NCBI GenBank assembly: GCA_965227295.1
Contig: OZ245742.1
Span: forward strand, 1 to 64,000
From: Leptonemataceae bacterium
GTDB lineage: Bacteria; Spirochaetota; Leptospiria; Leptospirales; Leptonemataceae
Length of the DNA stretch: 64,000 nt
Direction: 5' to 3'
Part shown: piece by piece, positions 8,754 through 40,062 of the stretch
Numbering within the stretch: position 1 is the first letter of the stretch
How the letters are laid out: each line of letters begins with the position of its first letter
Program-made: the position numbers and the translations under genes
Notes under the pieces: generated by a model
The model's input: the letters and a program-made list of their open reading frames with translations, nothing else
Told to the model about the DNA's origin: nothing
The model's database searches: none

Positions 8754-9999
8754 ATCTCCGGTCTACAATCCACACAGGCCCGCGAGCGCGCGCGCCGAGG
8801 TTCGGTAGCCTCGGCGCGCGCGTTCGCGGGGCGGACCGTGTCAGACTCGCAGCGGGGCGGCGAAATCGCGCGCGTTCTCGGGAGCCCCGCCCGTGAGACT
8901 CACAGCCGCGGCCCTCTTTCGCCCCCCTGCCGGACGCCCGCTGCGAAAACAAGATTCAATCGGCGATTTCCTCAGCTGAATCTGCTCTATTATACTGCGC
9001 TAGCGCAGGATGTTCTGGGCCGGGCGTATCCGAAGTTCTGTCCGCATTGTGATGTTGAAATGCACACGCCTGTGGCCGGGCGCGAGACCGCGGTGCGTTG
9101 CGAAACCTGTCACTACATGGGCTCGCGCACGGCGGGCACCCCGCTGGATCACTTAAAGTTACCTCTCTGGACGTTTAGCTATGTGCTTGGCGAGGCCGTG
9201 CAGACGTTCCCGCAGATGATCTCCGCGGCGCAGATTCAACGGCGGCTCGGATGTTCGAAACAGGCTTCGCTGAATCTCAAGCGGCGCCTGCAATTGTTCC
9301 TCACGGACCTCGTGCCGGCCGTCCGCGAACTGGTGAAGCGCGATCTTGAAGAGGCGTTTTCTGACCTGAAATTGCCGGAAAATCAAGACGTTTCGAAGTT
9401 TGTCGCGAATAAGCCCGTGGTGCACAGCGACACCCTCGCCTTGTTCTCGGCAACGCAGCGCAGTAACGGCGGTCGCGCAAGATGGAAACATACCGGACAG
9501 ACCGCAAGCATCTATCTTTCGGACAAAGTCGCGGAGCAACGTGGCAAAGTCCAGATCGGAACGCTCGCGCATACCGTTGCGATTATGAACGGGCCGGTGC
9601 TACTTACGTCCGTTCGCGATCAAACACAGAAGAGTCTTGAACCTTCTTTCAACTTCTTGCCGCGCCTGACGCCGATCATGACGGACGAAGGCACGCCGTG
9701 GCTGTCGCGTTACTTTCCGAATCATCGCGCCGTAAATCACAGCGCCCGCGCGAAGGACAAACAGCGCAGCAAGTGGGCGCGGGATCGCTGGAGCCGCAAC
9801 GGCGTCCACAATCAGGTCGCCGAAGGCAACCAGCGAATCGTTAAGATGAGTTTCCTCGCAGCTTACGGATACTTCGATCCGAAGTACTCGCAGTTGTATC
9901 TCAATGAATACTCCGCGCTCAAGGCCCTGAAGCTCCACGGCCTCGATAGTCTGCTTTCTCTATCAAATCCGACCGGTGTGGGGAATGTAGACCACAGAT
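8754..9999 (+). mobile_element. IS1595-like transposase unit 1 (leader type A)
   Basis: Imperfect terminal IRs atctccggtctacaatcc / ggaatgtagaccacagat; CPHC..CETC zinc ribbon, HTH, VHSDT / IMTDE / HRAVNHS / GVHNQVAEG / YLNEY motifs; ORF stop at 10005-10007. Confidence 0.8.
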
Positions 10000-10007
10000 T
10001 GTTCTAG

Positions 10008-11253
10008 ATCTCCGGTCTCGAATCCACACATAGCCGCCAGCCCGCGCGCGGCGGGCGCCGGTCCGCCGCGCGCGGGCTGGCGGCGACTGCTCCGCAACAA
10101 TCGCAGCGGGGCGGCGAAATCGCGCGCGTTCTCGGGAGCCCCGCCCGTGAGACTCACGGCCGCGCCCAAACAACGCCCCCCAGGCGAGCGCCCGCTGCGA
10201 AAACAAGATTCAATGCGCGATTTCCACAGCTGAATCTGTTCCATTATACGGCGCTCGCGCAGGATGTACTCGCGCGCACCTATCCGAGGTTCTGTTCGCA
10301 CTGCGAAACGGAAATGCGCACGCCCGTGGCCGGGCGCGAGACCGCGGTGCGTTGCGCAACCTGTCATCACATGGGCTCGCGCACGGCGGGCACACCCTTG
10401 GACCACTTAAAGTTACCTCTTTGGACGTTTAGCTACGTCCTCGGCGAGGCCGTACAGACGTTCCCGCAGATGATCTCCGCGGCGCAGATTCAAAGACGGC
10501 TCGGGTGTTCGAAACAGGCTTCGCTCAATCTCAAACGGCGGTTGCAGTTGTTCCTCACGGACCTCGTGCCCGCCGTTCGCGAACTGGTGAAGCGCGACCT
10601 TGAAGATGCGTTTTCGGACCTGAAATTGCCTGAGAATCAGGACGTTTCGAAGTTCGTCGCGAACAAGCCCGTAGTCCACAGTGACACCCTCGCCTTATTC
10701 TCGGCAACGCAACGTTCGAACGGCGGTCGTGCGAGATGGAAGCACACCGGACAAACTGCGAGCATTTATCTCTCGGATAAGGTCGCGGAGCAACGCGGCA
10801 AGGTTCAGATCGGAACGCTCGCACATACCGTTGCGATTAAGAACGGACCGGTGTTACTCACGTCCGTTCGCGATCAAACGCAGAAGAGTCTGGAGCCGGC
10901 TTTTAACTTCCTACCCCGCAACACTGCGATAATGACAGACGAAGGCACGCCGTGGCTTTCGCGTTACTTCCCGAATCATCGCGCCGTGAATCACTCAGCG
11001 CGTGCGAAAGACAAACAGCGCAGCAAGTGGGCGCGGGATCGCTGGAGTCGCAACGGCGTGCACAACCAGGTCGCCGAAGGCAACCAGCGCATCGTTAAGA
11101 TGTCTTTCCTGGCAGCTTACGGATACTTCGACCCGAAGCATTCGCAGTTGTATCTCAACGAATACTCCGCACTCAAGGCACTGAAGATCCACGGCCTCGA
11201 TAGCCTGCTTTCTTTATCAAATGCGGCCGATGTGCGGAATGTAGACCACAGAT
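10008..11253 (+). mobile_element. IS1595-like transposase unit 2 (leader type B)
   Basis: Same 1246-bp length and ends as unit 1; follows the spacer tgttctag. Confidence 0.8.
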
Positions 11254-11876
11254 ATAGCGCCCTGCCCGCCGGGACGCCCGTCGGCGCGGGGCTCAGCCCG
11301 TTTCGCCAAAAAGTGCTTCAAAACCTGTATCGGCCACCCGAATTGCACGAGCGCCGGGGCCTCGACTATAGCGATTCGCGGCGCCAGATCCGCGGAAATC
11401 TCAAGCTGATGCTGGATGAGCCGGACCTGTTCGCCGCGAAACAGGCGCACGTGGACTACCTGAACTCGTTTCAAAGCCTGCCACCGTTCCGGAAGCAGAA
11501 CGAAAAGAAGTACGCCGCGCAGGCGTCGGCGCTCTGGAACGCGCTTTCACGGCACGACGCGAAGCTCTCGGCCGATGTGGCCCGGACCGTGCGCGTCAAT
11601 CATCGCATGGTATTAAGGATGATTCGACTGTGGACGAAGCTCGGGCTCGTCGAGGCGCGGGAGATTCGAAACAGCAAGGACCGGCGCAAACAGTTCTGGG
11701 TCTCGCGGCGCGTATCGCTTTTGCCGGCGCTGCTGTATACCTGGGATCTCGACGGGTTTCGCAATCAAACCGAGGATAGCATGCCGGTCGAGTGCGTGAA
11801 GAAGACGCGGCGCGGCAAGCATGGAATGACCGGCAAAGAACGTTCTAAATTTATTCGGGAGATGTATGATGGGTAA
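10314..11876 (+). CDS. IS1595-like transposase reading through the right IR into a ~200-aa winged-HTH extension; true start upstream of 10314 and unclear
   Basis: No stop after DHR; ALWNALSRHDAKLSADVARTVRVNHRMVLRMIRLWTKLGLVE is wHTH-like. Confidence 0.65.
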   Translation: MRTPVAGRETAVRCATCHHMGSRTAGTPLDHLKLPLWTFSYVLGEAVQTFPQMISAAQIQRRLGCSKQASLNLKRRLQLFLTDLVPAVRELVKRDLEDAFSDLKLPENQDVSKFVANKPVVHSDTLALFSATQRSNGGRARWKHTGQTASIYLSDKVAEQRGKVQIGTLAHTVAIKNGPVLLTSVRDQTQKSLEPAFNFLPRNTAIMTDEGTPWLSRYFPNHRAVNHSARAKDKQRSKWARDRWSRNGVHNQVAEGNQRIVKMSFLAAYGYFDPKHSQLYLNEYSALKALKIHGLDSLLSLSNAADVRNVDHRYSALPAGTPVGAGLSPFRQKVLQNLYRPPELHERRGLDYSDSRRQIRGNLKLMLDEPDLFAAKQAHVDYLNSFQSLPPFRKQNEKKYAAQASALWNALSRHDAKLSADVARTVRVNHRMVLRMIRLWTKLGLVEAREIRNSKDRRKQFWVSRRVSLLPALLYTWDLDGFRNQTEDSMPVECVKKTRRGKHGMTGKERSKFIREMYDG

Positions 11877-12195
11877 AGTATCGAAGAAGAAGGTTAGCAA
11901 GAAAGCGAAGGAGGAACCGATGAAGTTCTTCGCACGCAATTTTTGGGAGTTGATGAAGGAACAGGACTACAAGTGCGCCCTCACCGGAAGAGAACTGACG
12001 CCGGACAATACGGAGGTCGAGCTACGTGTGCCGTTTAAGAGCGTGGGGCGCACGGAGCTTGCAAATCACTACATCGTCGTGCGGCAATTGGCGTATACAG
12101 CGCGGCATGTGAGCGAGGAAGAGATCGTCGAGCTTGCCGCCGACATCATCCGGTATCGCGGCAAGGAGTTCGGCTATGCGATCCGCAAAGCGTGA
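11866..12195 (+). CDS. Small degenerate HNH-like protein
   Basis: QDYKCALTGRELT...P...N pattern resembles HNH proteins but the catalytic His is absent; overlaps upstream stop. Confidence 0.5.
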   Translation: MMGKVSKKKVSKKAKEEPMKFFARNFWELMKEQDYKCALTGRELTPDNTEVELRVPFKSVGRTELANHYIVVRQLAYTARHVSEEEIVELAADIIRYRGKEFGYAIRKA

Positions 12196-12802
12196 GGATC
12201 TGTTTCCGGCGTGGGGCGTCGAGGCGGCGCTCTCACGCTTAAGAGGCCGGCAGAAGAAGTTTGCGGCATCGCCGATGGAATGTAAGCACGTCGCGCGCGG
12301 GGAGAGGTCGTGGAGCTACGCTTGCGTCGCCGCCGTGAACAAGATGCGCTACCGGCACCGCGCTGTCTTTCAGGAGGCCCGGGAGCCTGATGTGTGGGCG
12401 TGGGTGATTGCCGTGCAGAAGAAAAAGCTCGTGCGGCGAATTGATCCGGTCGCGGCGTGGCGGGATGCCGAGTATCGGATACTCGAACGTTACTACGGCC
12501 GGCTGAAGGAAAGTCGGTGGGAGCGGGAGGCCGACCGGTGGCGGTATGAGATTTTGCGGCAGCGGTCTTATCTACGACGGTTACGCCGACGTTCACCGGG
12601 CAAGACGACCGCTGGCGGTTGGAACCACGTGATCGAGAGGATGATTCAGATTCCCTTGCGGAGGCCGGATATCGCCACCAGTGAAGATTCTTGGGCGTGG
12701 CAACCCATCACAGCGTCCCAGAGGGAAAAAATTCGGATTCTTTGGAAGTCGCGGGGATGGGAGAACACCTTACTTCGAGTAAGAAAAGCAACGGGTGGGT
12801 AG
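12176..12802 (+). CDS. Hypothetical Arg/Trp-rich protein
   Basis: Long ORF overlapping the previous gene; start uncertain. Confidence 0.5.
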   Translation: MRSAKREDLFPAWGVEAALSRLRGRQKKFAASPMECKHVARGERSWSYACVAAVNKMRYRHRAVFQEAREPDVWAWVIAVQKKKLVRRIDPVAAWRDAEYRILERYYGRLKESRWEREADRWRYEILRQRSYLRRLRRRSPGKTTAGGWNHVIERMIQIPLRRPDIATSEDSWAWQPITASQREKIRILWKSRGWENTLLRVRKATGG

Positions 12803-13135
12803 ACACTATGTCGTCCGGATTTGCTGTGCGGAGAGGTACGATCTCAAGACTAACCTAAGTTGAGGCCCTTACCCCAGTTTATTCATGAAATTGGCCGTAA
12901 TCTCGATTTCCGGACGTGAATGAATCCGCGCACGGGCAAAGTCCGGCAGCCCAGATTCTAGTGCAGTGTAGATACATCAGCCAGAGACAGCTTTCTTGAT
13001 TGTGGGGCAACTGACATCGATTTCCTAACGAGATAATCAAAAGTTGACACATATATAGGAACGGATTGATTGGTTTCATTCGATCTATGTCTTGGTTCCT
13101 ACAATAGGACGGATAGATATACGGAGCAAAATTCC

Positions 13136-15388
13136 ATGAACTTATACGGGCTTGAAATCCGAAACTTTCGGCGCCTGAAGCATTGCTGGATTGACGTGGC
13201 AAAGGAAACGACCGTCTTTGTCGGGCCTAACAACAGCGGTAAGACTTCTGCCATGGAGGCGCTCATAAAGTTCCTCGGGAAACCGGACGACAGGAAGTTT
13301 CTCGTTACAGATTTCACAATCTCCAACTGGGATGAACTGAACAAGATCGGCGAACGCTGGACGGCGGAAGAAAATGGAGATGCCGATGACCTCGATGATC
13401 CATTGAGCCTGAAGCCTTGGTCCGCATGGCTTCCATCACTGGATATATGGATCGAGGTTAGTAAAACTGACATCCATCGAGTGGTACACTTGATTCCTAC
13501 TTTAGATTGGACCACTGAACGCATGGTCGGGATGAGACTCACTTTTGCGCCAAAACTGGAGGCGACGCAGCAGCGCGATGACGCTGAATCCGGCTCCATT
13601 CGAGTAAGCGAAGTTTTCTATAACGATTACCGCCGGGCATATCTTGCGGCCAGAGATGCCTTGAAGTCCGACAGCGCCAACCTTTGGCCTGAAAATCTCT
13701 ATGATTTTCTTTCAAAGAAAGGAAGGCTGGACGCGCACTTTCAGGTGCAGGCCTATCTACTTGATCATACAGCGAGGTTTGATGAAAAAAGAACACGACG
13801 ATTAGATTTTTCGCCGAGCCCGGGAACACTCCGCCCTCTGGATGGGGCCCCTCTCAAGGGCCTGTTTCAAGTCGATATCGTACGGGCCCAACGCAATCTT
13901 TCCAATACAGACAGCAGACTCTTCACTGAAAAACTGACGAAGTACCATAAAAGCCATCTGGATCCAGAAGACACTCCCGGACCACAAGATTCGGAAGCAC
14001 TTGAGGCCCTCGGCAAAGCCCGGGAAGATTTTAGCACGCTCCTGGGAACTCAATTCGGTCCGGCTATTAAAGACCTTGAGAAATTCGGATACCCAGGCTT
14101 CCGAGAGCCGAACATCCGGTTAGAGAGCCAACTCGGGCTCGGTGACGGATTGAACCATCCTTCTACGGTTCGACTGGCGTTAAGTCAGAATAAGGCTCAC
14201 AGTCTTCCAGCGGAGTACAACGGGCTTGGCTTCCAGAACCTTCTGATGCTCACATTCGATTTGATGAGCTTTCGAGACGGCTGGATGCGGGTAGGGAAAG
14301 CCGATCGCCCTCATCAAGATCCGATTGCGCCCATCCATATCGTCCTTCTCGAAGAACCGGAAGCCTACCTTCATGTCCAGGTTCAGCAAGTATTCATTGA
14401 TAAGGCTTACGGACTTCTACGGGGACACGAAAGCTTAAAAGGGGAAGATTCGCCTTTTACGAGCCATCTGATGATCAGCACACACTCTAGCGCTATCTCT
14501 CACCAGGTGGACTACGCCAGTTTACGCTACTTCAAGAAAAAAGCTCCAGAGGATTCCTCTGCTGTTCCCTACGCCGAAGTTGTCAGCCTAAGTGATGTCT
14601 TCGGCAAGAATCGGAAAACGACGAAATTCACTCGTCGGTATCTCAGAGCGACCCATTCAGATCTCTTTTTTGCAGATGCTGTCATCCTGGTTGAAGGCGC
14701 TGCGGAACAAATCTTGCTGCCGTTCATAATCCAGAATCACCACGCGGATCTTGCTTCCCGCTATGTGACGCTGCTTAATGTCGGGGGCAGCCACGCTCAT
14801 ACCCTGCGTAGATTGATTGAGCGTCTTGATATCCTGACGTTAATCGTCACGGATCTGGATGCATATAAGGAGGCACCAAAGGAGGTATCAAAGAAGAAAA
14901 CTGCCGAAACTCAACAGGGAAACAAAGTAAGGCCTGTTCCGGGGCAAAACCTTGTCACCAGCAATCCAGTACTCAAAACTTGGCTGCCTGGCAAAAAAGG
15001 ACTTGATGAAGTTCTGCATGCCGAAACCGAAAAGGAAAGTACCAAAGTTGCATTCCCCCAAAGCTTGACGTTCAAGTATAAAAATATATCCGGCAAGGTG
15101 ATCCCATATACTTTCGAAGATGCCCTGTACTATGAAAATGCCACGGTAATTGATGAAATCAAGGCATCCATGTGCAAAAAGCTTACGAAAGCGGGAAGCG
15201 GTGACTCAGTTGAAAAAATCGCGGAAGCTCTCTTCTTAGCAATCAATGCGGGGGGATTTAAAAAGGCGGAATTGGCGATTGAGTTGCTTTTCGAAGCAAA
15301 GACACCCGAGGAAATCCGGGCGCCCAAATACATCCAAGAGGGCTTCGTCTGGCTGGAGGAAAAACTTGTAGGGAGGGAAACCTCATGA
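13136..15388 (+). CDS. OLD-family ATP-dependent endonuclease (GajA-like)
   Basis: IRNFR, Walker A GPNNSGKTS, LEEPEAYLH, STHS, TOPRIM LVEG..E and TDLD. Confidence 0.88.
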   Translation: MNLYGLEIRNFRRLKHCWIDVAKETTVFVGPNNSGKTSAMEALIKFLGKPDDRKFLVTDFTISNWDELNKIGERWTAEENGDADDLDDPLSLKPWSAWLPSLDIWIEVSKTDIHRVVHLIPTLDWTTERMVGMRLTFAPKLEATQQRDDAESGSIRVSEVFYNDYRRAYLAARDALKSDSANLWPENLYDFLSKKGRLDAHFQVQAYLLDHTARFDEKRTRRLDFSPSPGTLRPLDGAPLKGLFQVDIVRAQRNLSNTDSRLFTEKLTKYHKSHLDPEDTPGPQDSEALEALGKAREDFSTLLGTQFGPAIKDLEKFGYPGFREPNIRLESQLGLGDGLNHPSTVRLALSQNKAHSLPAEYNGLGFQNLLMLTFDLMSFRDGWMRVGKADRPHQDPIAPIHIVLLEEPEAYLHVQVQQVFIDKAYGLLRGHESLKGEDSPFTSHLMISTHSSAISHQVDYASLRYFKKKAPEDSSAVPYAEVVSLSDVFGKNRKTTKFTRRYLRATHSDLFFADAVILVEGAAEQILLPFIIQNHHADLASRYVTLLNVGGSHAHTLRRLIERLDILTLIVTDLDAYKEAPKEVSKKKTAETQQGNKVRPVPGQNLVTSNPVLKTWLPGKKGLDEVLHAETEKESTKVAFPQSLTFKYKNISGKVIPYTFEDALYYENATVIDEIKASMCKKLTKAGSGDSVEKIAEALFLAINAGGFKKAELAIELLFEAKTPEEIRAPKYIQEGFVWLEEKLVGRETS

Positions 15389-17292
15389 TGCAACGACGAA
15401 CTGCGCGCCCGTGGACGAAGATCGACCAGGAAATTTATGCATGCCTTGAGGCGCCGCGCAGCTTCTTCCTGCGGGCGGCGGCTGGAGCGGGGAAAACCGG
15501 TTCGCTGACGGCAGTGCTCGATCGACTCCGGCAGGAACGCCGGGAAGAGTTCTATAAGAACGCTAGCGGCGTCGCTGTCATTACATTTACCAACGCGGCA
15601 GCGGATGAAATTCGTAATCGACTTCGCTTCGACGAAATTTTTCATATCACCACAATTCATAGCTTTTCGTGGGACCTCATTAAGCCCTTTCAAGACGACA
15701 TCCGTAAGTGGATCCGAAACCAAGAAAGCAGCAACGTTGAGAAGCTCGATACAAAGGAACGAGACAACAAGAAGAAGCTAAGCCAGACAGATACGAAATC
15801 CCGTGAGCGCAGCCAGACGCGCCTGGCCCGCCTGAATTCCATTCGACGATTTACGTACGAACCAAACGGTGCAAATTCCGACCGGGATTCCTTGAACCAT
15901 TCGGAAGTATTGAAGATTGCTGCCGAATTTCTTCAGGAGAAGCCGCTCATGTCCCAAGTCCTTGTACGTAAATACCCGATTCTCCTGATCGACGAGTGCC
16001 AGGATACGAACAAAGATTTGATAGAGGCGTTCCTGTCTATGCAGGTTACTCATGCAAAGGTCTTCACTCTCGGCCTGTTCGGGGACATGATGCAACGTAT
16101 ATTCCCAGGTGGTAAAAAAGATCTTGTAGACTCGCTTCCGGAAGACTGGGTTCAGCCCGAAAACCTCATGAACCACCGGTGTTCCCAGCGGGTGGTACGC
16201 CTCCTGAACAAAATCCGAGATGACGGTATCATCCAGAAACCACGCGCCGATGCTCCAAATGGATGCGTACGGATCTTTCTTTTACCAACGCAGAAAGACA
16301 ATGAGCTAGAAGCGAAACAGAAGCTTGAAATGCAAATTCAATTCAAAATGGCGGAAATTACTGATGATATCGGATGGCAACCGGCAGACGGAACTGTTAA
16401 GATCCTTGCACTGGAGCACCGGATGGCCGCAGCCCGACTGAGCTTTTCCCGTCTCTGGGACGCTCTGCAACCGGCTTACAGGGGTGAACGGAACTTCCTC
16501 GAGGGACGGACTCCTTGGGCTGCCTTTTTTCGCGACCAGCTATTCGCATTGATTGATGCTGTGCGAAACGACGACCAGTATCGGGTGGCTGAAATTGTTC
16601 GGAGGCATTCCCCTTTGCTTGATCGAAACAATGTGAGGGAGACCGAGAATCAAATGCAAAACATCCGGAAGGCTCGTGACGCCGTGACAGCATCAATCAC
16701 TGTCTTTGAATCTGAAGATACAGAATCCCTGCGGAGCATTCTACAGGCGATCATCAAATCCCGGCTACTGAACATCCCGGCAATCATTGAGGACGCTATG
16801 ATGATGGAGAATGCCTCGGAGGACAAGGACCCTCGAAAGGAATCCGCAAACAGCCGTGCCAGACAGATCACAGCGTGGGCGCAAGCTTTGGATCTTCCGA
16901 TGTCAGAAATGCGCAGGTTTATTGATTATGTGGCGGATCGATCCCGGTTCGGCACACATCAGGGAGTGAAAGGACTGGAGTTTCCTCGTGTGATGGTAAT
17001 TATGGACGACAGTGAGGCGAAAAGTAACCTCTTCAGTTTTGACAAACTTCACGGAGCACGAAAGCCCTCGGAGAAGGATCTCCAAAATCAGAAAATAGGA
17101 GAAGAGTGGACCGGGGATCGAACACAAAGGTTGTTGTACGTCACATGCAGCCGAGCCAGAGATAGTCTTGCACTGGTCTACTACTCAGAGAATCCTGATA
17201 AGGTTCGAGATTTTGTAACTAAGAACGAATGGTTTACCAACGATGAGATTTTGACTGGAGCGGATCTGCATGGCCTGCCGAAACCACGCTAA
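15385..17292 (+). CDS. UvrD-like helicase (GajB-like)
   Basis: AAAGAGKT, ITFTNAAA, TIHSF, IDECQD, THQGVKGLEF, LLYVTCSRA; overlaps the OLD gene stop. Confidence 0.88.
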   Translation: MMQRRTARPWTKIDQEIYACLEAPRSFFLRAAAGAGKTGSLTAVLDRLRQERREEFYKNASGVAVITFTNAAADEIRNRLRFDEIFHITTIHSFSWDLIKPFQDDIRKWIRNQESSNVEKLDTKERDNKKKLSQTDTKSRERSQTRLARLNSIRRFTYEPNGANSDRDSLNHSEVLKIAAEFLQEKPLMSQVLVRKYPILLIDECQDTNKDLIEAFLSMQVTHAKVFTLGLFGDMMQRIFPGGKKDLVDSLPEDWVQPENLMNHRCSQRVVRLLNKIRDDGIIQKPRADAPNGCVRIFLLPTQKDNELEAKQKLEMQIQFKMAEITDDIGWQPADGTVKILALEHRMAAARLSFSRLWDALQPAYRGERNFLEGRTPWAAFFRDQLFALIDAVRNDDQYRVAEIVRRHSPLLDRNNVRETENQMQNIRKARDAVTASITVFESEDTESLRSILQAIIKSRLLNIPAIIEDAMMMENASEDKDPRKESANSRARQITAWAQALDLPMSEMRRFIDYVADRSRFGTHQGVKGLEFPRVMVIMDDSEAKSNLFSFDKLHGARKPSEKDLQNQKIGEEWTGDRTQRLLYVTCSRARDSLALVYYSENPDKVRDFVTKNEWFTNDEILTGADLHGLPKPR

Positions 17293-17327
17293 TACCCAAG
17301 CTTTAGCACCAAGTCAGGCGATAAACT

Positions 17328-17627: not shown

Positions 17628-17902
17628 TTCTGCAGATAACTTCCTGGCAGAACTCAAGACAACCATTCCTATGAGGATTCCTGACTCGAAAAAGATCACA
17701 GAAATTCCCGGTGGCAGCGTGGCGGGATGCGGAAAACAAGATTCTGGAGCGGAATCATGCCCGGCTTCTGTCACCTCATGTATAGGCGACAACTTTCCTG
17801 ATTGTGGGGGCAGTCTGGGAACAAACATCGAATAGCTCTTATAGTCCTCCACCAAATTGATAACGCTGGACAACGACGAGGGAGCTATCGTAACCTGGCC
17901 AG

Positions 17903-18871: not shown

Positions 18872-18872
18872 A

Positions 18873-31328: not shown

Positions 31329-31570
31329 GCTTAAGCGACGCCATGCGCGACGAACTCGTAACCCGGTTCGAAAACGCTTCGCAGCACATCCGCAATCTCA
31401 TCGCGGAGGATCTGCGTAAACGCAAACCGCTCGTGGACATCTGGAACCAACCCCGCGAAAAAGTCCCGTGCAATGACGGCTGGAAAAAACTCTGACCATG
31501 CCGCGCGTGCAAGCGAAGACCCGGTGGGTTTTCGCTTGCACGCGCTTCTGACGCCCGGCTTTTTCGCGGC

Positions 31571-32068: not shown

Positions 32069-32094
32069 TGTACTCTCAGATGATGTTTGTCCTC

Positions 32095-32244
32095 GTGATC
32101 GTCTTCCGTGATCGTCTTCCGTGATCGTCTTCCGTGATCGTCTTCCGTGATCGTCTTCCGTGATCGTCTTCCGTGATCGTCTTCCGTGATCGTCTTCCGT
32201 GATCGTCTTCCGTGATCGTCTTCCGTGATCGTCTTCCGTGATCG
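32095..32244 (+). repeat. 11x 13-bp repeat GTGATCGTCTTCC
   Basis: Counted directly. Confidence 0.97.
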
Positions 32245-32345
32245 CGGGTTAGTCTCTCTTTATCTCAAGCTTGTACCGTTTCCTGATTCGGCCGTCCGTG
32301 GTTCTCTTGCCGCTGATGATGTTCTTTGTCTCTCTTTCGTTCTTG

Positions 32346-34329
32346 GTCGCGGTAGAACGGCCGGTTGCCCGGCCGCCCCCGCACAGATCCCGGCGTGCGG
32401 TATTCTCGCACCGGGCTCTTCGAAAGCACTCGCTTCCACATAAAGTCAATTCAGAGTAAGTCGCAACTGAGATACTGGTCGTTCCATGATGCGCGGTTTT
32501 TCGATCCGGTAGTGCGCCATCAGATCCCTCAGCCCCTGCCAGTCCAGACTCCGGCGCTGACTGCGCCGATTGAGCCACTTGTACAGATTCATTTCCACCT
32601 GATAGTAGAAGCTTCGTATACTCTTGTAGTTGCATTGGACGCCATAATAGTTATAGTATCCACGCAGCCGGGAGTTCAGAAGATTGAAGAACCTGCGCAT
32701 GGGTAGATGCCGATTCGCTTTAATCCACTGCTTCACATTCTGGATCGACGCATGCAATCGCTTTGGAGCGGTGCGACGCGGAACCCACCAGAACCCCTTT
32801 CGAGAACGAGCCCAGCGGTATTCAAAGCCTAGAAATACGAACGCCTCACGCCCGGTATTGAACTTCGCGCGGAAGCCCGGGCGCTCGAAACTTTTCACTC
32901 CTGACTTTTCCGGCGCCAGTTCCAGACCAAACTTTCGCAAACGTTTTCCAAGCGTCGCATAGAATTTCAGCGCATCGTCTTTGGATTCAAAGGCGCAAAC
33001 AAAATCGTCCGCGTATCGACACATATAGGCCGGTCTCTTGCAGTGCTTCTTCACCACTTTCTCGAACCAGAGGTCCAGTACGTAATGAAGATAGACGTTC
33101 GCCAGAACCGGACTGATCACGCCGCCTTGAGGAGTCCCAGCGGTCGGGCGCGAGACCTGACCGTTTACCTCCAGCACGCCTGCTTTCAGCCACTTGCGAA
33201 TCAGACCGAGAAAGGCCCGATCATCGATTCGTTGCTCCAGCATTCGCATCAACCAATCATGGTCAATGTTGTCGAAGAAACCCTTGATGTCGGCTTCCAC
33301 AATCCAGCCGAGCTTCCCCGGACTCAAAGTTGAACTCAGAGTCTTCGAAGCCTCACGCGGACCGGTGTTCGGCCGATAACCATACGAACACGACAGGAAG
33401 TCTTGCTCATAGATCGCTTCAAGGATACGCGTCGCGCATGTTTGTACCAGTTTGTCTTCGAGGGCCGGCAATCCAAGCGGACGTTGTTTTCCGTCCGCTT
33501 TCGGGATAAAGACCCTGCGAATCAGTTTTGTTCGGTATCGTTTCTGTTTTAAGCGTTCCACCAGATCCCCGACATTTTCCGTAAGGTTCGCTTCGTAGTC
33601 GCGAAACGTTTCACGGTCCACGCCCGGAGCCGCCCGGCGATTCATTCCTGCGAACGAATCTTCGAGATTCATCTGGTTGAGCATCCCATACAGATTACGA
33701 AACAGATGTTTCTTACTCCTCCTCGCTTTATTTGCTATTGCCCGTAGTGAGGTTTGCATCAGTTGTTCCGATCCTGCCGTCCGGCTGATGTTGACTCTGC
33801 GAGCTGCGTACTTTCGTCAGCCCCTTCCCCGATCATCGCGCATCGCACGCGAAGACCGAACCCGTCGAAACTCCATTCGAGTTTCATTCGATTCTGTGGA
33901 CGGCTCTCCCGCCCTCTGAGTACTATGGGCTGATCCGACTCCCCGTTGATCATCATTCTTCCTTGTTCATTCGGTCAGAATTACCTTCGCTATCGTCGAA
34001 GGAACCAACGGGGTCTCCCGGGTTCCACGATGTTTCTCTGCATACATGCCGCGCTCAAGCGACCCCGACAGACCTCCAGAATCTCGCTAAAACGATTCCT
34101 TTGTGCTGGTTTCCATCTGACCAATGATGTCACCGTCTGCATCTATGGCATTTTACGAGGCTCAACAGCTTCCGGGAGTGTGGACTCCCCTACGGCCTGC
34201 ATGCTTCCCTGTGTACGCTTCGTGTGGCGGTTACCCGCTTCCACGCAACACTCGGTAGAAGTTGTTCGCTAAACTTTACTTCATATGGACTTTCACCTTA
34301 TCAGAAACATCGGGCTTTGCCCGGCGCAC
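32346..34329 (-). mobile_element. Group II intron 1 (no endonuclease domain)
   Basis: Minus strand starts GTGCG and ends in D5 (AGC triad)/D6 ...cgAC; flanks rejoin to ttcttg|tggccaca as in the other modules. Confidence 0.93.
32446..33759 (-). CDS. ltrA: Group II intron reverse transcriptase/maturase
   Basis: PGVD, IPK..RPLG, GTPQGGVISP, RYADDF, FLGF, domain X GYYNYY. Confidence 0.93.
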   Translation of the reverse strand: MQTSLRAIANKARRSKKHLFRNLYGMLNQMNLEDSFAGMNRRAAPGVDRETFRDYEANLTENVGDLVERLKQKRYRTKLIRRVFIPKADGKQRPLGLPALEDKLVQTCATRILEAIYEQDFLSCSYGYRPNTGPREASKTLSSTLSPGKLGWIVEADIKGFFDNIDHDWLMRMLEQRIDDRAFLGLIRKWLKAGVLEVNGQVSRPTAGTPQGGVISPVLANVYLHYVLDLWFEKVVKKHCKRPAYMCRYADDFVCAFESKDDALKFYATLGKRLRKFGLELAPEKSGVKSFERPGFRAKFNTGREAFVFLGFEYRWARSRKGFWWVPRRTAPKRLHASIQNVKQWIKANRHLPMRRFFNLLNSRLRGYYNYYGVQCNYKSIRSFYYQVEMNLYKWLNRRSQRRSLDWQGLRDLMAHYRIEKPRIMERPVSQLRLTLN

Positions 34330-34458
34330 TGGCCACACGCCCCACGCATTTGTGGCCACAAATCTCCACCGAGCCTTTTTGTGAATTTCTGCTGGACAGC
34401 TTCACTGTACGGCATCGACCCTCGTTTCATGTCCGCAGCCGCTCGAAATTCCGCGCAT

Positions 34459-35704
34459 ATCTCCGGTCTCGAATCCACACATAGCCGCCAGCCCGCGCGC
34501 GGCGGGCGCCGGTCCGCCGCGCGCGGGCTGGCGGCGACTGCTCCGCAACAATCGCAGCGGGGCGGCGAAATCGCGCGCGTTCTCGGGAGCCCCGCCCGTG
34601 AGACTCACGGCCGCGCCCAAACAACGCCCCCCAGGCGAGCGCCCGCTGCGAAAACAAGATTCAATGCGCGATTTCCACAGCTGAATCTGTTCCATTATAC
34701 GGCGCTCGCGCAGGATGTACTCGCGCGCACCTATCCGAGGTTCTGTTCGCACTGCGAAACGGAAATGCGCACGCCCGTGGCCGGGCGCGAGACCGCGGTG
34801 CGTTGCGCAACCTGTCATCACATGGGCTCGCGCACGGCGGGCACACCCTTGGACCACTTAAAGTTACCTCTTTGGACGTTTAGCTACGTCCTCGGCGAGG
34901 CCGTACAGACGTTCCCGCAGATGATCTCCGCGGCGCAGATTCAAAGACGGCTCGGGTGTTCGAAACAGGCTTCGCTCAATCTCAAACGGCGGTTGCAGTT
35001 GTTCCTCACGGACCTCGTGCCCGCCGTTCGCGAACTGGTGAAGCGCGACCTTGAAGATGCGTTTTCGGACCTGAAATTGCCTGAGAATCAGGACGTTTCG
35101 AAGTTCGTCGCGAACAAGCCCGTAGTCCACAGTGACACCCTCGCCTTATTCTCGGCAACGCAACGTTCGAACGGCGGTCGTGCGAGATGGAAGCACACCG
35201 GACAAACTGCGAGCATTTATCTCTCGGATAAGGTCGCGGAGCAACGCGGCAAGGTTCAGATCGGAACGCTCGCACATACCGTTGCGATTAAGAACGGACC
35301 GGTGTTACTCACGTCCGTTCGCGATCAAACGCAGAAGAGTCTGGAGCCGGCTTTTAACTTCCTACCCCGCAACACTGCGATAATGACAGACGAAGGCACG
35401 CCGTGGCTTTCGCGTTACTTCCCGAATCATCGCGCCGTGAATCACTCAGCGCGTGCGAAAGACAAACAGCGCAGCAAGTGGGCGCGGGATCGCTGGAGTC
35501 GCAACGGCGTGCACAACCAGGTCGCCGAAGGCAACCAGCGCATCGTTAAGATGTCTTTCCTGGCAGCTTACGGATACTTCGACCCGAAGCATTCGCAGTT
35601 GTATCTCAACGAATACTCCGCACTCAAGGCACTGAAGATCCACGGCCTCGATAGCCTGCTTTCTTTATCAAATGCGGCCGATGTGCGGAATGTAGACCAC
35701 AGAT
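34459..35704 (+). mobile_element. IS1595-like unit 3 (type B; appears identical to unit 2)
   Basis: Same ends and translation; stop at 35710-35712 in the spacer. Confidence 0.8.
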
Positions 35705-35712
35705 TGTTCTAG

Positions 35713-36967
35713 ATCTCCGGTCTCGAATCCGCACAGGCCCGCGAGCGCGCGCACCGAGGTTCTGTAACCTCGGCGCGCGCGCTCGCGGGGCGGGCCGTGT
35801 CAGACTCGCAGCGGTGCGGCGAAATCGCGCGCGTTCTCGGCGGCCCCGCCCGTGAGACTCACGGCCGCGCCCAAAAAACGCCCCCCGCTGGCCGCAAAAG
35901 AAAGGGACCGGCCAAGGACCTCCGGTCCTCGCGATTCCCGCATGTTAACGTTCCGTACTTAACGGAATTTACGCAGGACGTCCTTGCGCGGGCGTATCCG
36001 AAATTCTGTCCGCACTGCGAAACGCAAATGCAAACGCCCGTGGCCGGGCGCGAGACGGCCGTACGCTGCGGCGAGTGTCATTTCATGGGCTCGCGCACGG
36101 CGGGCACGCCTCTTGACCATTTCAAGTTGCCGCTGTGGACCTTCGGCTATCTTCTCGGCGAATCGGTCCAGTTGTTCCCGCTCATGATCTCCGCCGCACA
36201 GATTCGCCGGCGGCTCGGTGTATCTAAGAGCACATCGCTGTTACTTAAGCGGCGCCTGCAATTGTTCCTCACGGATCTGCTTCCGGCCGTCCGCGAGATG
36301 ATGCGCCGCGATCTGGAAACTTCCTGGAATTGCGAGAAATTGCCTGAAAATGGCGACGTTTCAGAAGTCGTTGCGAACAAGCCCGTGGTGCATTCGGACA
36401 CGCTCGCGTTGTTCTCTGCCACGCAACGAAGCAACGGTGGCCGCGCTCGTTGGAAGCACACGGGGCAGACTGCGAGCATCTATCTTTCGGACAAGGTCGC
36501 GGAAGAGCGTGGCAAGCTTCAAATCGGAACGCTTGCGCACACTGTTGCGCTAAAGAACGGGCCGGTGTTGTTTACGTCCGTGCGTGATCAGACGCAGAAG
36601 AGTTTGCAACAATCGTTCGACTTCGTTCCGAAGAACTCAGTGATCATGACGGATGATGGCACACCGTGGTTGTCGCGCTACTTTCGGAATCACCGTGCAA
36701 TCAACCACAGTGCGCGAGCGAAAGACGGCAAGCGGTGTAAGTGGGCGCGTGATCGGTGGTGCAAGGACGGCGTGCACAACCAGGTCGCCGAAGGAAACCA
36801 GCGCATCCTTAAGATGTCTTTTCTGGCAGCTTATGGTTACTTCACGCCGGAGTACTCGCAGTTGTATCTCAACGAATACGCCGGACTGAAAGCGCTCAAG
36901 GTTCACGGTCTCGATGAACTCATTTCACCCGCGAATCGGCCAGTTGTGGGGATTGTAGACCCCAGAT
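35713..36967 (+). mobile_element. IS1595-like unit 4 (type A; most diverged, 1255 bp)
   Basis: ORF 35797-36975, same motifs with many substitutions, 9 bp longer so frame is kept. Confidence 0.8.
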
Positions 36968-36975
36968 TGTTCTAG

Positions 36976-38220
36976 ATCTCCGGTCTACAATCCACACATA
37001 GCCGCCAGCCCGCGCGCGGCGGGCGCCGGTCCGCCGCGCGCGGGCTGGCGGCGACTGCTCCGCAACAATCGCAGGGGGGCGGCGAAATCGCGCGCGTTCT
37101 CGGCAGCCCCGCCCGTGAGACTCACGGCCGCGCCCAAAAAACGCCCCCCCGCCAGGACCCCGCTGCGAAAACTAAATTCAATGCGCGATTTCCTCAGCTA
37201 AACTTAGGCTACTATACCGGGCTCGCGCAGGATGTTCTGGCGCGGACGTATCCGAAGTTCTGCCCGCATTGCGAAACCGAGATGCGCACGCCGGTGGCCG
37301 GGCGCGAGACCGCGGTACGCTGCGAAACCTGTCACTACATGGGCTCGCGCACGGCGGGAACGCCGCTGGATCACTTAAAGTTACCTCTGTGGACATTTGC
37401 GTATATCCTCGGCGAGGCCGTGCAAACATTTCCGCAGATGATCTCGGCCGCGCAGATTAAGCGGCGGCTCGGTTGCTCGAAACAGGCGTCGTTGAACCTC
37501 AAGCGGCGGTTGCAGTTGTTCCTCACGGACCTGCTGCCGGCCGTGCGGGAACTCGTGAAGCACGAACTCGAAGATGCGTTTTCGGAACTGAAATTGCCTG
37601 AAAATCAGGACATTTCGAAGATCGTCGCGAATAAGCCCGTGGTGCACAGCGATACGCTCGCGTTGTTCTCCGCGACGCAGCGCAGTAACGGCGGTCGTGC
37701 AAGATGGAAGCACACGGGACAAACCGCATCGATCTATCTTTCGGACAAAGTCGCGGAGCAGCGGGGCAAGGTTCAGATCGGAACGCTTGCGCATACCGTC
37801 GCGCTTAAGAACGGGCCGGTGTTACTTACGTCCGTTCGCGACCAAACACAGAAAAGTCTAAGCCGTCTTTTAACTTCATGCCGCGCTACACTGCGATTAT
37901 GACGGACGAAGGCACGCCGTGGCTCTCGCGCTACTTTCCGAACCACCGCGCGGTAAATCACAGCGCGCGGGCGAAAGACAAACAACGCAGCAAGTGGGCG
38001 CGGGATCGCTGGTGTAAGAACGGCGTGCACAATCAGGTCGCCGAAGGAAATCAGCGGATCGTTAAGATGAGTTTTCTCGCAGCTTACGGCTACTTTGACC
38101 CGAGGCACTCGCAGTTGTATCTCAACGAATACTCGACGCTCAAAGCACTGAAGATTCACGGCCTTGATTCTTTAGTTTCTTTAGCAAATGCGTCTGGTGT
38201 GCGGAATGTAGACCACAGAT
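36976..38220 (+). mobile_element. IS1595-like unit 5 (type B; 1-bp deletion frameshift near 37860)
   Basis: 1245 bp; split ORFs 37282-37902 and 37878-38228. Confidence 0.8.
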
Positions 38221-38228
38221 TGTACTAG

Positions 38229-39627
38229 CAGGCTGCTGAAAAAGTCGAAATTTCCTGGCGATTTCGCGGTGCCTGTTCAAATTCTGTCGCATGCGCGGCG
38301 AAGAGGAAAAGCAACCGAGTATCTGGAGTCACGTTTCGATGGAGGACCGGATTCCGGCAAACCATCCGTTGCGTGACATTCGCAAGCTGACGGATGCGGT
38401 CCTCGCGAAACTGAGCGATCGATTCGATGAAATGTATCCGGCCTTCGGTCGCCCATCGATTCCGCCAGAGTATTTGTTGCGCGCGCTTTTGCTGCAAGTG
38501 CTGTTCAGTGTACGCAGCGAACGTCAGTTGATGGAGCAAACGAACTACAATCTGCTCTATCGCTGGTTCATCGGGTTGAGCGCCGACGATCCCGTCTGGG
38601 ATGCGAGCGTCTTTTCAAAGAATCGTGATCGTCTGATGGAAGGCGGTATCGCCGACGAATTCTTTCGTGGCGTGCTGGAAGTGGCGGATGATCGCGGGCT
38701 GATCAGCGAAGAACATTTCACCGTGGATGCCACGTTGCTGGAGGCTGCGGCGAGCCTGAAGAGCTTCCAGAAAAAAGACGGTCGGCAATCCCCCTCGGAT
38801 GATGATCCGGGCAATCCGTTCGTGAGCTTTCACGGCGAAAAGCGCCGCAACGATACACATGAATCCACGACCGATCCAGATGCGAAGCTATTCCGCAAAG
38901 GCAACGGCAAAGAGGCCCGGCTGGTTTACATAGGGCATGTCCTTATGGAAAACCGTAACTGCCTCGCTGTGATGGCCGGCGTGACTCGCGCAACCGGAAC
39001 GGCGGAACGCGATGCGGCAGCCATCTTCATGAAGGAACTACGCCGAAGCAATCATCGGCCCCGCGTAACTCTGGGCGCCGACAAAGGCTACGATGCTAAA
39101 GCATTCGTAGAAGAACTTAAAGCGATCCGAATCGTGCCGCATATCGCGCAGAAGAGCCGGTCCAGTGCCGTCGATTATCGAACGGCCCGCAGCCCCGCCT
39201 ATGCCGTAAGTCAACGTCGACGCAAAGCCGTCGAAGAAATTTTCGGCTGGCTGAAGTCGGTCGGCCTGTGCAGGAAGATGCGCTTCCGCGGCCCGGATCG
39301 CGTTGGGTGGATCTTCCGCTTCGCTGTTGCCGTCTACAACTTGCTGCGAATCAGAAACCTGGAAGAGGGTACCGCATGATCGCAAATGCTAACTTGCGCA
39401 ATACAAGCGTTAGGGATGCGCAGGGGGCCGCGCAGCGGCAGTCCGGAGCGCGAAGCGCGGAGGACCGAAGCGAACGCAGAGCCCGGAGCAGCCCGGCGCC
39501 CGGCCGGCTTCAGAGGGGAAGGAGCGAACAGCGGCCCCGTCCAGCGGGGCCTTGTTGGCGCCGGCCGGGCGCAACGCCCAAATGAATTTCACAGATTCCG
39601 CTTTCGAATGACTTTTTCAGCAGCCTG
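38229..39627 (+). mobile_element. IS5-family insertion sequence in the unit 5/6 spacer
   Basis: 18-bp TIRs caggctgctgaaaaagtc; CTAG duplication at 38225-38228 and 39628-39631. Confidence 0.93.
38291..39379 (+). CDS. IS5-family transposase
   Basis: GRPSIPPE, HFTVDATL, TTDPDA, GADKGYD, R..VEE.FGW.K. Confidence 0.93.
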   Translation: MRGEEEKQPSIWSHVSMEDRIPANHPLRDIRKLTDAVLAKLSDRFDEMYPAFGRPSIPPEYLLRALLLQVLFSVRSERQLMEQTNYNLLYRWFIGLSADDPVWDASVFSKNRDRLMEGGIADEFFRGVLEVADDRGLISEEHFTVDATLLEAAASLKSFQKKDGRQSPSDDDPGNPFVSFHGEKRRNDTHESTTDPDAKLFRKGNGKEARLVYIGHVLMENRNCLAVMAGVTRATGTAERDAAAIFMKELRRSNHRPRVTLGADKGYDAKAFVEELKAIRIVPHIAQKSRSSAVDYRTARSPAYAVSQRRRKAVEEIFGWLKSVGLCRKMRFRGPDRVGWIFRFAVAVYNLLRIRNLEEGTA

Positions 39628-39631
39628 CTAG

Positions 39632-40062
39632 ATCTCCGGTCTCGAATCCGCACAGGCCCGCGAGCGCGCGCACCGAGGTTCTGTAACCTCGGCGCGCGCG
39701 CTCGCGGCAGGGGCCGTGTCAGACTCGCAGCGGGGCGGCGAAATCGCGCGCGTTCTCGGCGACCCCGCCCTTGAAAATCACGGCCGCGGCCCTCTTTCGC
39801 CCCCCTGCAACACACCCCCGGCCAAACTGCGATTCAATGCGCGATTTCCTCAGCTGAATTTGTTCTATTATAACGCGCTCGCGCAGGATGTTCTCGCGCG
39901 GGCGTATCCGAAGTTCTGTCCGCACTGTGAAACGGAGATGCGCACGCCGGTGGCCGGGCGCGAGACCGCGGTGCGGTGTGGTGAGTGTCACTTCATGGCG
40001 TCGCGCACGGCGGGCACGCCGCTGGATCACTTAAAGTTACCTCTGTGGACGTTTGCGTATGT
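39632..40062 (+). pseudogene. IS1595-like unit 6 (type A), 3'-truncated
   Basis: Homology stops at LWTFAY and does not resume after the intron. Confidence 0.8.

Follow-up and report, generated by a model that had tools for sequence, protein, structure and literature searches.

Long and short copies of a distant IS1595-like transposase unit bound large blocks behind an MBOAT stop codon in a Leptonemataceae genome

Transposase units, spacers and flanks

The window, which comprises the first 64,000 nt of contig OZ245742.1 from a Leptonemataceae bacterium (GCA_965227295.1), carries two arrays of forward-strand transposase units (8754–11253 and 34459–40062). A first-pass annotation had described six units with inverted-repeat ends, and all six were upheld together with every coordinate it reported. 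The first array consists of U1 (8754–9999), a short unit with an ORF that stops at the TAG in the adjoining spacer, and U2 (10008–11253). The second contains the short unit U3 (34459–35704), which is 100% identical to U2 over 1246 bp, the solo short unit U4 (35713–36967), and a further solo short unit, U5 (36976–38220; 1245 bp), in which a frameshift splits the tblastn match into two pieces in different frames. It ends with U6 (39632–40062), the initial 431 bp of a unit whose remainder is cut off by a group II intron. A seventh piece, beyond the six noted earlier, is an inverted copy of the initial 217–220 bp of U2 (19888–19669, reverse strand; 100% identical to 10008–10224).

The units terminate in a 23-nt inverted repeat (83% complementary) and are joined by an 8-bp spacer. 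Three spacers on the forward strand read TGTTCTAG (10000–10007 between U1 and U2, 35705–35712 between U3 and U4, and 36968–36975 between U4 and U5), and a fourth, TGTACTAG (38221–38228), carries one mismatch. The 18-nt junction word occurs three times, compared with 0.00 expected from 100 shuffles. The fourth junction is broken up by a forward-strand IS5-family element (38229–39627; Pfam DUF772 and DDE_Tnp_1) with 18-bp perfect inverted repeats, which inserted in the CTAG of the spacer and duplicated it. As described before, unit plus spacer measures 1254 bp for U1, U2 and U3 and 1263 bp for U4, and the reading frame, already open 5′ of the left end, continues through to the TAG in the spacer (ORFs 8550–10007 and 34285–35712). 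The in-frame ATG at 8724 is likewise present, in the left flank; U2-type units have no in-frame ATG, GTG or TTG 5′ of the zinc ribbon.

The claim that the units are diverged was borne out in part. Neighbouring units are only 74–86% alike, and U4 shares 76% identity with U1, whereas U2 equals U3 and, towards the opposite contig end, U1 recurs three times at 100% identity (5896423–5897668, 5924296–5925541 and 5925550–5926795); not all units are therefore diverged.

To the left of U1 lies a conserved module that includes two 13-bp tandem repeat arrays (8290–8523; identified with TRF) and a conserved non-coding flank, here called (ii) (8524–8753, forward strand), which ends in GCGCAT and directly precedes each short unit that terminates a block. 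The repeat module recurs at 32094–32244 and, inverted, at 20360–20458; flank (ii) recurs at 34330–34458 and 5924066–5924295 and, inverted, at 20002–19889. Flank (ii) can also be aligned with four flanks of a metagenome-assembled genome (MAG) of the same genus, its final ~45 nt being nearly invariant. The in-frame ATG is invariant in all seven aligned flanks, but it sits in a CATG palindrome, so that its conservation does not indicate a strand. A direct copy of the left-flank module (29654–34458, forward strand) is split by an rve-type IS (30220–31290) and a group II intron (32346–34329). An inverted copy (19889–21736, reverse strand), comprising (ii), 13-bp repeats, SNase and DUF6908, is 95–100% identical to 29553–34458 and adjoins the inverted start of U2. 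Every block of the window's clade contains such an inverted 217–386-bp unit start with a left-flank module.

The unit proteins belong at best to a distant branch of the IS1595 family, as judged from sequence comparison. All three that were scanned exceeded the cut-off of Pfam DDE_Tnp_IS1595 (PF12762; 31.7, 37.6 and 35.0 bits versus 27), in line with the profile check proposed in the first-pass annotation, with matches spanning only profile positions 47–148 of 153. The NCBIfam IS1595 model NF033547 gave 19.5–20.8 bits, below its cut-off of 75. PF12762 was the sole Pfam transposase family for the units, and no IS6/IS26-family transposase was found. Four residues, D226, D311, E357 and K364, do not vary among 17 sequences. 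IS1595 transposases have a basic residue seven positions past the third catalytic residue, a spacing that E357 and K364 satisfy. A CxxC..CxxC zinc-ribbon region lies N-terminally, 5′ of a helix-turn-helix-like region; it returned no Pfam match, and the AF2 model of this N-terminal part (residues 60–200) reached a pLDDT of 74–92.

The long gene, its companions and the cargo

The last unit of the first array reads in frame across its right end into a conserved C-terminal extension of ~205 aa (11253–11876), giving a long gene at 10008–11876 on the forward strand of which U2 forms the N-terminal part. The extension is kept at the amino-acid level at a second locus of this genome, at 5.03 Mb, and in 16 homologues. 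Its AF2 model is confident for residues 460–580, which are predicted to be helical and winged-helix-like.

Two small forward-strand ORFs follow. sORF1 (11866–12195) encodes a small HNH-like protein; it scored 0.96 against HNH clusters in Atlas features, which we treat as a lead only, and searches of Pfam and NCBIfam gave no match. It is found 3′ of the long gene in related loci, with tblastn matches directly behind that gene at 20 of 51 loci, including Leptospira records. sORF2 (12134–12802) is a second conserved accessory ORF, with tblastn matches at 12 of the 51 loci; the Pfam search was without a match. The genes adjoining the long gene gave no Pfam match. The two sORFs are its only conserved companions, and no conserved recombinase gene was found beside it.

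Besides a defence pair, the islands in the window carry an efflux pump and a polymorphic toxin. In block 2, the block bounded by U2 and U3, Pfam identified an AAA_15 and OLD-TOPRIM pair, which we take to be Gabija-like, followed by a UvrD-type helicase (13070–17292, forward strand). Further along lies a polymorphic-toxin-like protein of 2184 aa (21783–28337, forward strand), in which Pfam recognised a PT-HINT domain and, weakly, a ParB-like C-terminus. Among 27 ORFs of the window scanned with Pfam, no phage-integrase or other integrase-type recombinase domain came up. Integrons have an IntI tyrosine recombinase next to attI, and their cassettes end in attC, whereas the 'cassettes' of the window are ISs with inverted-repeat ends.

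Target site and pairing of the units

The spacer is the end of a host gene. At 5.896 Mb on the same contig, before the whole series, a 620-codon MBOAT-like ORF is closed by TGTTCTAG (5896415–5896422), so the 8-mer is the final 8 nt of the MBOAT gene, stop codon included. At the 5.03 Mb locus, AGTTTTAG both closes the MBOAT gene and separates units A and B. Across loci and genomes the 8-mer changes with the site (AGTTTTAG, TGTTTTAG, TGTTTTAA and unrelated 8-mers elsewhere). Because the spacer matches the MBOAT end and follows the local target in this way, it is a target duplication. The first-pass annotation had proposed a constant junction carried by the element, which is contradicted by the local target sequence found at every other locus and genome examined.

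In the window's clade the element inserts exactly 3′ of the stop codon of an MBOAT (AlgI/DltB-like) gene. The left-most units begin directly after this codon in all seven cases examined (two in this genome, two in the same-genus MAG and three in another MAG), with at least four different 8-mers, and all 11 profile matches in this genome fall at the two MBOAT loci. Two MBOAT paralogues here have near-identical 15-mers at their ends, yet are empty. An empty site, with both flanks and a single copy of the 8-mer, was found in 2 of 156 genomes searched, within the genus of the occupied sites.

Solo units with a spacer copy at either end, which the first-pass annotation had itself named as evidence against its reading, do exist: U4 (8/8 bases), U5 (7/8) and unit A at 5.03 Mb (8/8), as well as all three solo units of the same-genus MAG (8/8), in which all 11 spacers read TGTTTTAG. 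It had argued against a target duplication from the outer flanks of the arrays, which are unlike the spacer. They differ because they are the inside of 17–29 kb blocks. Both are conserved sequence: the left outer flank is the non-coding region described above, which recurs at several loci in direct or inverted orientation, and the right one is coding, being the C-terminal third of the transposase gene.

A block opens with a long unit and closes with a short copy of it; each array of the window is therefore a seam, where one block's short end meets the long start of its successor, with solo units in addition. U1 is the right-terminal copy of a block starting at contig position 5925550, the spacer at 10000–10007 is common to that block and block 2, and U2 and U3 are the left- and right-terminal copies of block 2. 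In all three blocks of this series the terminal units (5896423/5924296, 5925550/8754 and 10008/34459) are 100% identical, with matching 8-mers outside. In the same-genus MAG, the terminal units are 100% identical in 4/4 blocks, and units of different blocks, like neighbouring units, are only 78–83% alike. There are exceptions: the block at 5.03 Mb lacks a short copy at its end, and one block of the same-genus MAG closes with a truncated copy that is only 77% alike.

The long/short architecture recurs across Leptospirales, where the profile matched 79 of 121 genomes searched. The first-pass annotation had considered that such arrays might be missing from relatives; they recur in the same-genus MAG and in other Leptospirales. 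Four long/short pairs on single contigs of other lineages are 100, 99.9, 100 and 98.6% identical, and 8-bp direct repeats (TGTTTTAA, GCACCGGC and GTCAGTGC) flank all three that could be tested. Thirteen further pairs were chosen with the short form 3′ of the long form on one strand, and ten were fetched. Seven of these are 100% identical and the others 99.8, 99.0 and 92.1%, the last being one Leptospira-type pair. Direct repeats of 8 bp, read by eye with a one-base register shift allowed, surround 7/10; one pair lies at a contig end and two were ambiguous. Altogether, 14 pairs from other genomes were examined, and 9 of them are 100% identical. The interior of at least one block, from a draft genome of Leptospira, is labelled in GenBank as a complete phage (KF114878.1), a designation that may need review.

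Route of integration and relation to known systems

We consider serial, site-specific, cointegrate-type integration by the distant IS1595-family transposase the probable origin of this architecture. The units are copies of a distant IS1595-family IS of ~1.25 kb with 23-nt terminal inverted repeats and an 8-bp target duplication. Insertion behind the MBOAT stop codon duplicates 8 bp, stop codon included; each insertion regenerates the target, so that elements stack head to tail with a single 8-mer between them. Most inserts are a 17–29 kb block instead of a bare IS, in the order long-form unit with extension, sORF1, sORF2, cargo and identical, directly repeated short-form unit, in which the duplicated target supplies the TAG that ends the ORF. 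The most likely route to such a block is cointegrate-type integration of a circular element with one unit, either by IS26-like copy-in replicative transposition or by IS insertion followed by homologous recombination. Both routes would duplicate the unit and the 8-bp target, and recombination between the two unit copies would free a circle, leaving a solo short unit like U4 or U5. The model leaves the inverted unit start and left-flank module within the blocks unexplained. The blocks lacking an identical pair, the missing start codon of U2-type units, the low NCBIfam score and the two empty MBOAT paralogues also count against it, and circles, excision products or transposition events were not seen, the contigs of public runs being short and broken in the repeats.

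The same end structure, with 8-bp direct repeats around a block, direct unit copies and proper transposon ends at both outer ends, would also be produced by a compound transposon, a permanent composite of two direct IS copies that moves by its outer ends and has no one-unit circle. Permanent copies should, however, drift apart unless homogenised, and the terminal copies are 100% identical in most blocks (3/3 here, 4/4 in the MAG and 9/14 elsewhere), although the divergence between blocks is ~20% and block 2 is old enough to have acquired an IS and an intron. The long gene also requires sequence beyond the right-hand end of the left copy. We regard this explanation as unlikely.

The first-pass annotation observed the units correctly, and what it made of them was mostly wrong, with partial support. 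It had suggested a docking site for ~1254-bp cassette circles with a constant 8-bp junction, the promoter-proximal cassette being an exchangeable expressed allele. Such uptake could be integron-like or use an abutted-end junction. One site does gather many diverged insertions, the sequence of right end, 8 bp and left end looks like an abutted-end junction, and the in-frame ATG is invariant in 7/7 flanks. The spacer is an ordinary target duplication that differs between loci and genomes, however, units pair across 17–29 kb and not with their neighbours, the ATG belongs to a strandless palindrome, and the scanned window ORFs include no integrase-type recombinase. Nothing was found in support of 1254-bp circles or expressed alleles, and we judge this reading very improbable.

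Two further explanations are even less probable, to about the same degree. In-place tandem duplication of the transposase gene by unequal crossing-over, followed by divergence, would account for head-to-tail units of constant period and for a 13-kb stretch that is duplicated at 100% identity 29 kb apart. It is contradicted by the pairing pattern, in which neighbours are the most different units and identical ones lie 17–29 kb apart; in addition, the inverted-repeat tips coincide exactly with the array ends, the duplicated segments begin exactly at the 8-mer, and another lineage has the empty site with a single 8-mer. The seam, with its 13-nt inverted arms around an asymmetric 8-bp core, also resembles a lox/FRT-like site, in which two 13-nt arms enclose an 8-nt core and which an unrecognised recombinase could use, but cores vary widely by lineage (for example GCACCGGC, GTCAGTGC and CACTACTC), the enzyme that is conserved is a DDE transposase whose family is known to make 8-bp duplications, and only sORF1 and sORF2 are conserved beside the long gene. 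An assembly artefact, which the position at a repeat-rich contig start and the large near-identical segments at both contig ends might suggest, has a negligible probability given that at least 12 other genomes, assembled independently and in several cases into few contigs, show the same architecture, and given that the contig's final bases are not a copy of its initial ones.

Under cointegrate-type integration, a stronger and doubtful variant is possible, in which the blocks are obligate translocatable units: circles of 17–70 kb in which alone the transposase gene is full, and on whose integration it is split. The full gene would start with the conserved 5′ region (ii), continue through the unit and end with the winged-helix extension. 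On copy-in at the MBOAT stop codon, two differently incomplete copies would remain, a long left one without its native 5′ region and a right one that has this region and is shortened by the target TAG. Integration and excision would then switch the form of enzyme made, the extension or the HNH-like sORF1 would confer site specificity, and the inverted 217–386-bp unit start might act as an inversion switch, bringing the long gene back behind the 5′ region.

Several known systems share parts of this architecture. IS21, IS30 and IS911 form tandem dimers in which the right end is followed by a few bp and the left end of the next copy; the junctions here look alike, but their spacer is a full target duplication and the neighbours are different elements. 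Tn7-like elements, which have a TnsA/TnsB/TnsC core and a target selector, insert behind a conserved host gene that stays intact, reuse the site to form tandem elements and generate a 5-bp duplication. Site position and tandem reuse are the same here, whereas the duplication is 8 bp and the machinery comprises one DDE protein, extended by a winged-helix-like part, together with a small HNH-like protein.

The IS1595 relatives MTnSag1 and tISCpe8 likewise combine a DDE_Tnp_IS1595 domain with an N-terminal zinc ribbon. According to PMC5704250, they have ~25-bp inverted repeats and 8-bp duplications, and the family includes carriers of passenger genes and a circular form. The 23-nt repeats and the 8-bp duplications around solos and blocks agree with this description, as does the single 8-mer of the empty site. 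The present element differs in being distant (below the NCBIfam cut-off), in a transposase ORF without a stop inside the element, in a long form that crosses the right end into the ~205-aa extension, in two direct copies 17–70 kb apart when integrated, and, in one clade, in a target that is strictly the MBOAT stop codon. In pseudo-compound transposons of the IS26/IS6 type, as described in PMC4196232, PMC6952201 and PMC7986276, identical direct IS copies bound cargo with an 8-bp duplication outside, entry is by cointegrate formation, the mobile form is proposed to be a circle with a single IS and the cargo, and IS arrays are interspersed with cargo. Here, too, cargo lies between identical direct copies with an 8-bp duplication around the whole, but the transposase family differs, the gene extends beyond the IS and the target is site-specific. 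Neighbouring blocks each own a pair with a target copy between them and share no IS copy, which is why a targeted conservative route does not fit.

The long/short island architecture was not found described in the literature searched, a scope beyond which supplements and most subscription journals lay. Same-strand pairs of long and short transposase genes offer a simple marker for 17–70 kb islands in Leptospirales, Leptospira genera included, and the block pairs are indirect evidence for cointegrate-type products of an IS1595-family enzyme. With a DDE element aimed so precisely at a stop codon, the host gene and the truncated transposase copy both keep a stop. If the circles are indeed the obligate form, they would represent a widespread, undescribed island-building system of Leptospirales.

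Transposase units and the target of insertion

The DNA examined here, the window, spans the first 64 kb of one contig of 5.94 Mb. All six IS1595-like transposase units were found where the first-pass annotation had placed them: U1 (8754-9999), U2 (10008-11253), U3 (34459-35704), U4 (35713-36967), the frameshifted U5 (36976-38220) and U6 (39632-40062), which is truncated by a group II intron. U3 is identical to U2, and U1 to 5925550-5926795. The unit proteins score just above the Pfam cut-off for DDE_Tnp_IS1595, the unit ends carry a 23-nt inverted repeat (83% complementary), and the reading frame, as previously claimed, stays open from the left tip through to the TAG of the 8-bp spacer between neighbouring units. 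This spacer is TGTTCTAG at three and TGTACTAG at one of the four junctions of the window, and an 18-nt junction word occurs three times compared with none in 100 shuffles. At the fourth junction, an IS5-family element (38229-39627) has inserted into the spacer, duplicating its CTAG. Contigs of public runs X1-X3 are short and break in repeats, with no listed piece covering a unit; their loose ends show TGTTCTAG before 8754 and ATAGCGCCCTGC behind 9999, both contexts that occur elsewhere in the contig.

The unit copies of this genome are confined to two loci. The main series begins outside the window at 5896423, near the opposite end of the contig, and the 8 nt preceding this position are TGTTCTAG, which forms the end of a 620-codon MBOAT-like ORF (..FIYFVF-stop). 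An MBOAT paralogue at 5.03 Mb ends in AGTTTTAG, and the identical 8-mer separates units A and B at that locus, so that unit A lies between perfect 8-bp direct repeats. In a MAG of the same genus (CBDEUV010000002.1), the 8-mer is TGTTTTAG at the MBOAT end as well as in all 11 spacers. A third MAG has three units that each directly follow an MBOAT stop codon, the 8-mers being AGTTTTAG, AGTTTTGA and AGTTCTGA. The left-most unit sits exactly behind an MBOAT stop codon in 7/7 cases examined; two further MBOAT paralogues in this genome have nearly the same end sequence and no insertion.

The spacer is a target duplication of 8 bp, the length reported for the IS1595 family (PMC5704250). It had been described as no ordinary target duplication, possibly deriving from cassette circles with a constant junction. 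A circle-borne junction would be constant, whereas the spacer varies with the local target; its constancy within the arrays of the window is real, but reflects duplication of a preferred target. The units do not form the undescribed cassette-docking system that was proposed.

The combined length of unit and spacer is divisible by three because unit lengths are 1 mod 3 and the spacer adds 8. This holds in the MBOAT clade (units of 1246, 1255, 1315, 1234-1276 and 1237 bp) and fails for the 1112- and 1188-bp units of two distant lineages; we read this divisibility as a by-product, though it gives the short form, the ORF closed by the spacer TAG, a tidy stop. An in-frame start before the zinc ribbon is absent in U2-type units, and a GTG lies 28 codons in for U1, U4 and U6. 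The in-frame ATG of the left flank (8524-8753) is invariant in 7/7 aligned flanks but falls within a CATG palindrome, and a sigma-70 consensus scan of 8300-10400 returned 0 sites (0.7 expected).

The long gene and its C-terminal extension

At 5.03 Mb of the same contig, the second unit of a diverged tandem pair (~69% DNA identity) continues in frame for ~210 residues, and this continuation is a protein-level homologue of the sequence that follows U2 (11253-11876). An alignment of 17 proteins (A1), drawn from several Leptospirales genomes, shows the transposase part and the extension as one conserved protein of ~520-620 aa with a conserved seam between them, in which D226, D311, E357 and K364 are invariant. 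Since the extension is coding, in frame and conserved in homologues, the final unit in an array forms the 5' two-thirds of a long gene, and the preceding units are short forms closed by the spacer TAG.

A search with a single protein as query found no relatives, and A1 was used as query instead; by profile search, the family is present in 79/121 genomes of the order. An AF2 model of the 622-aa long form reached a mean pLDDT of 61.5 (catalytic core <50), the confident regions being the N-terminal zinc-ribbon/HTH part and a predicted helical, winged-helix-like part of the extension. Atlas feature matches for the extension were weak (score ≤0.80) and fell on HTH-type clusters. Behind the long gene lie two small ORFs, the HNH-like sORF1 (20/51 loci) and sORF2 (12/51). 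One record each matched in the plasmid and phage collections, the former yielding no plasmid that carries just one long gene.

Four Leptospira contigs (L019, L023, L031 and L040; 1153-1220 bp each) hold one unit and nothing else, the usual sign of a multicopy IS collapsing in short-read assemblies.

Blocks bounded by identical units

In each array, the first short unit is identical in sequence to the preceding element's long unit rather than to its own neighbour; the arrays are seams between large blocks. Along the chromosome, the MBOAT gene is followed by block 1 (5896423-5925541), block 1' (5925550 to window 9999), block 2 (window 10008-35704), U4 and U5, each preceded by the 8-mer, and then, behind an 8-mer with one mismatch, by U6. 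Every block of this series has a long unit at its start and a 100% identical short copy at its end. A 13,011-bp stretch (5896415-5909425) has a 100% identical second copy 29 kb away (5925542 to window 2), and a 12.5-kb stretch with an AcrB/OEP efflux pump (window 1-12570) has a 96% duplicate at 5915634-5928112; we read these duplications as two sister blocks.

As arrays join the end of one block to the start of the next, their outer flanks are block interiors. These flanks do differ from the spacer, as the first-pass annotation noted, but are not arbitrary outside DNA. The left flank is non-coding and conserved, being alignable between two genomes and nearly invariant over its last ~45 nt, and the right flank is the C-terminal extension. 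We do not accept a small minus-strand ORF of the left flank (8528-8773) as a conserved protein, since alignment to the same-genus MAG requires a 1-nt gap close to its start and the residues disagree.

Identical long/short ends were predicted beforehand for the same-genus MAG and found in 4/4 blocks, with units of different blocks only 78-83% alike; three solo units, single short forms behind blocks, each have the 8-mer on both sides. Among the loci retrieved, four same-contig long/short pairs from other MAGs were 100, 99.9, 100 and 98.6% identical, and all three blocks testable for flanks had 8-bp direct repeats (TGTTTTAA, GCACCGGC and GTCAGTGC, the last two unrelated to MBOAT ends). Thirteen further pairs were chosen from the profile matches by the feature itself (short form 20-70 kb downstream of the long, same strand), of which 10 were analysed: seven were 100% identical and the rest 99.8, 99.0 and 92.1%. 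Direct repeats of 8 bp, scored by eye with a one-base register shift allowed, flanked 7/10, with one pair at a contig end and two ambiguous. Two of the chosen genomes share a common site, occupied by one block in one and by two stacked blocks in the other. The uninterrupted form of this site with a single 8-mer, as predicted, was found in two of the 156 genomes searched, both of the same genus as the occupied sites.

KF114878.1 (L072, 1-47417), deposited as a complete Leptospira phage genome, has incomplete ORFs at both ends. At least the final ORF (46617-47417) is a match to the transposase unit, and the record holds a second match elsewhere. The stretch between the two matches contains genes for an RHS protein and a family-B DNA polymerase as well as two integrase-family genes, and the annotation names no virion structural protein. 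The record looks like the interior of a block.

Block interiors and a model of integration

Inside each block of this clade, the first 217-386 bp of that block's long unit recur in inverted orientation at 95-100% identity; behind them comes an inverted left-flank module comprising the conserved flank, 13-bp repeats, SNase and DUF6908. Because unit start and module recur inverted inside the block, its interior holds a core between ~2.5-kb inverted repeats. We weighed the segment from the unit's left end to the inverted 217-bp copy (10008-19888) as a separate transposon and reject this for now, no copy having been seen with 8-bp direct repeats around it; among the copies seen, the inverted module always stands behind this segment.

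Modules of ~1.5-2.5 kb (DUF6908, SNase homologue, 13-bp tandem repeats) form inverted pairs around variable cores, at window 7245-8970, 19669-21837 and 29553-34675 and at 4545999-4552353; the pair at 4.55 Mb, 100% identical over 1516 bp, has no transposase unit. In the direct module, an rve-type (HTH + integrase core) IS transposase (30220-31290) separates the DUF6908 and SNase genes. Group II introns interrupt a left-flank module (32346-34329) and U6 (40063 to at least 41989); the RT ORF of a further intron at 5028407-5029720 shares its first 60 residues with that of the first window intron, both being 437 aa.

The cargo of block 2 includes an AAA_15/OLD-TOPRIM protein and, behind it, a UvrD-type helicase (13070-17292), a pair that we take to resemble the Gabija defence system. 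In the region 21783-29556, a 2184-aa protein combines a pretoxin-HINT domain with a weak ParB-like nuclease C-terminus, and two small ORFs without a family come after it; the arrangement resembles a polymorphic toxin with putative immunity genes. Elsewhere in the window lie a 331-bp tandem repeat (47470-48128; 2 copies, 83% matches) and a 9-bp repeat (4872-5039; 18.7 copies) within a collagen-like ORF.

We regard as established a distant element of the IS1595 family that duplicates 8 bp of its target, the MBOAT stop codon as a strict target in one clade, blocks bounded by identical direct copies, and the stacking of insertions at the site, since each insertion regenerates the target. Blocks most probably arise by cointegrate-type integration of a circular element carrying one unit between left flank and extension, which would duplicate both unit and target. 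IS26 and its translocatable units behave in this way. A solo unit would be either a simple insertion or the remnant of recombination between two copies of a block. A compound transposon moving as a whole would produce the same picture, but we consider it improbable: the near-universal identity of both copies, set against ~20% divergence between blocks, favours duplication at each entry. Cointegrate-type duplication does not account for the inverted unit-start and module copies.

A literature search, with supplements and most subscription journals outside its reach, found no description of the long/short island architecture. Across Leptospirales, these elements, which are IS1595-like and site-specific, occur as identical long/short pairs at the ends of large cargo islands.
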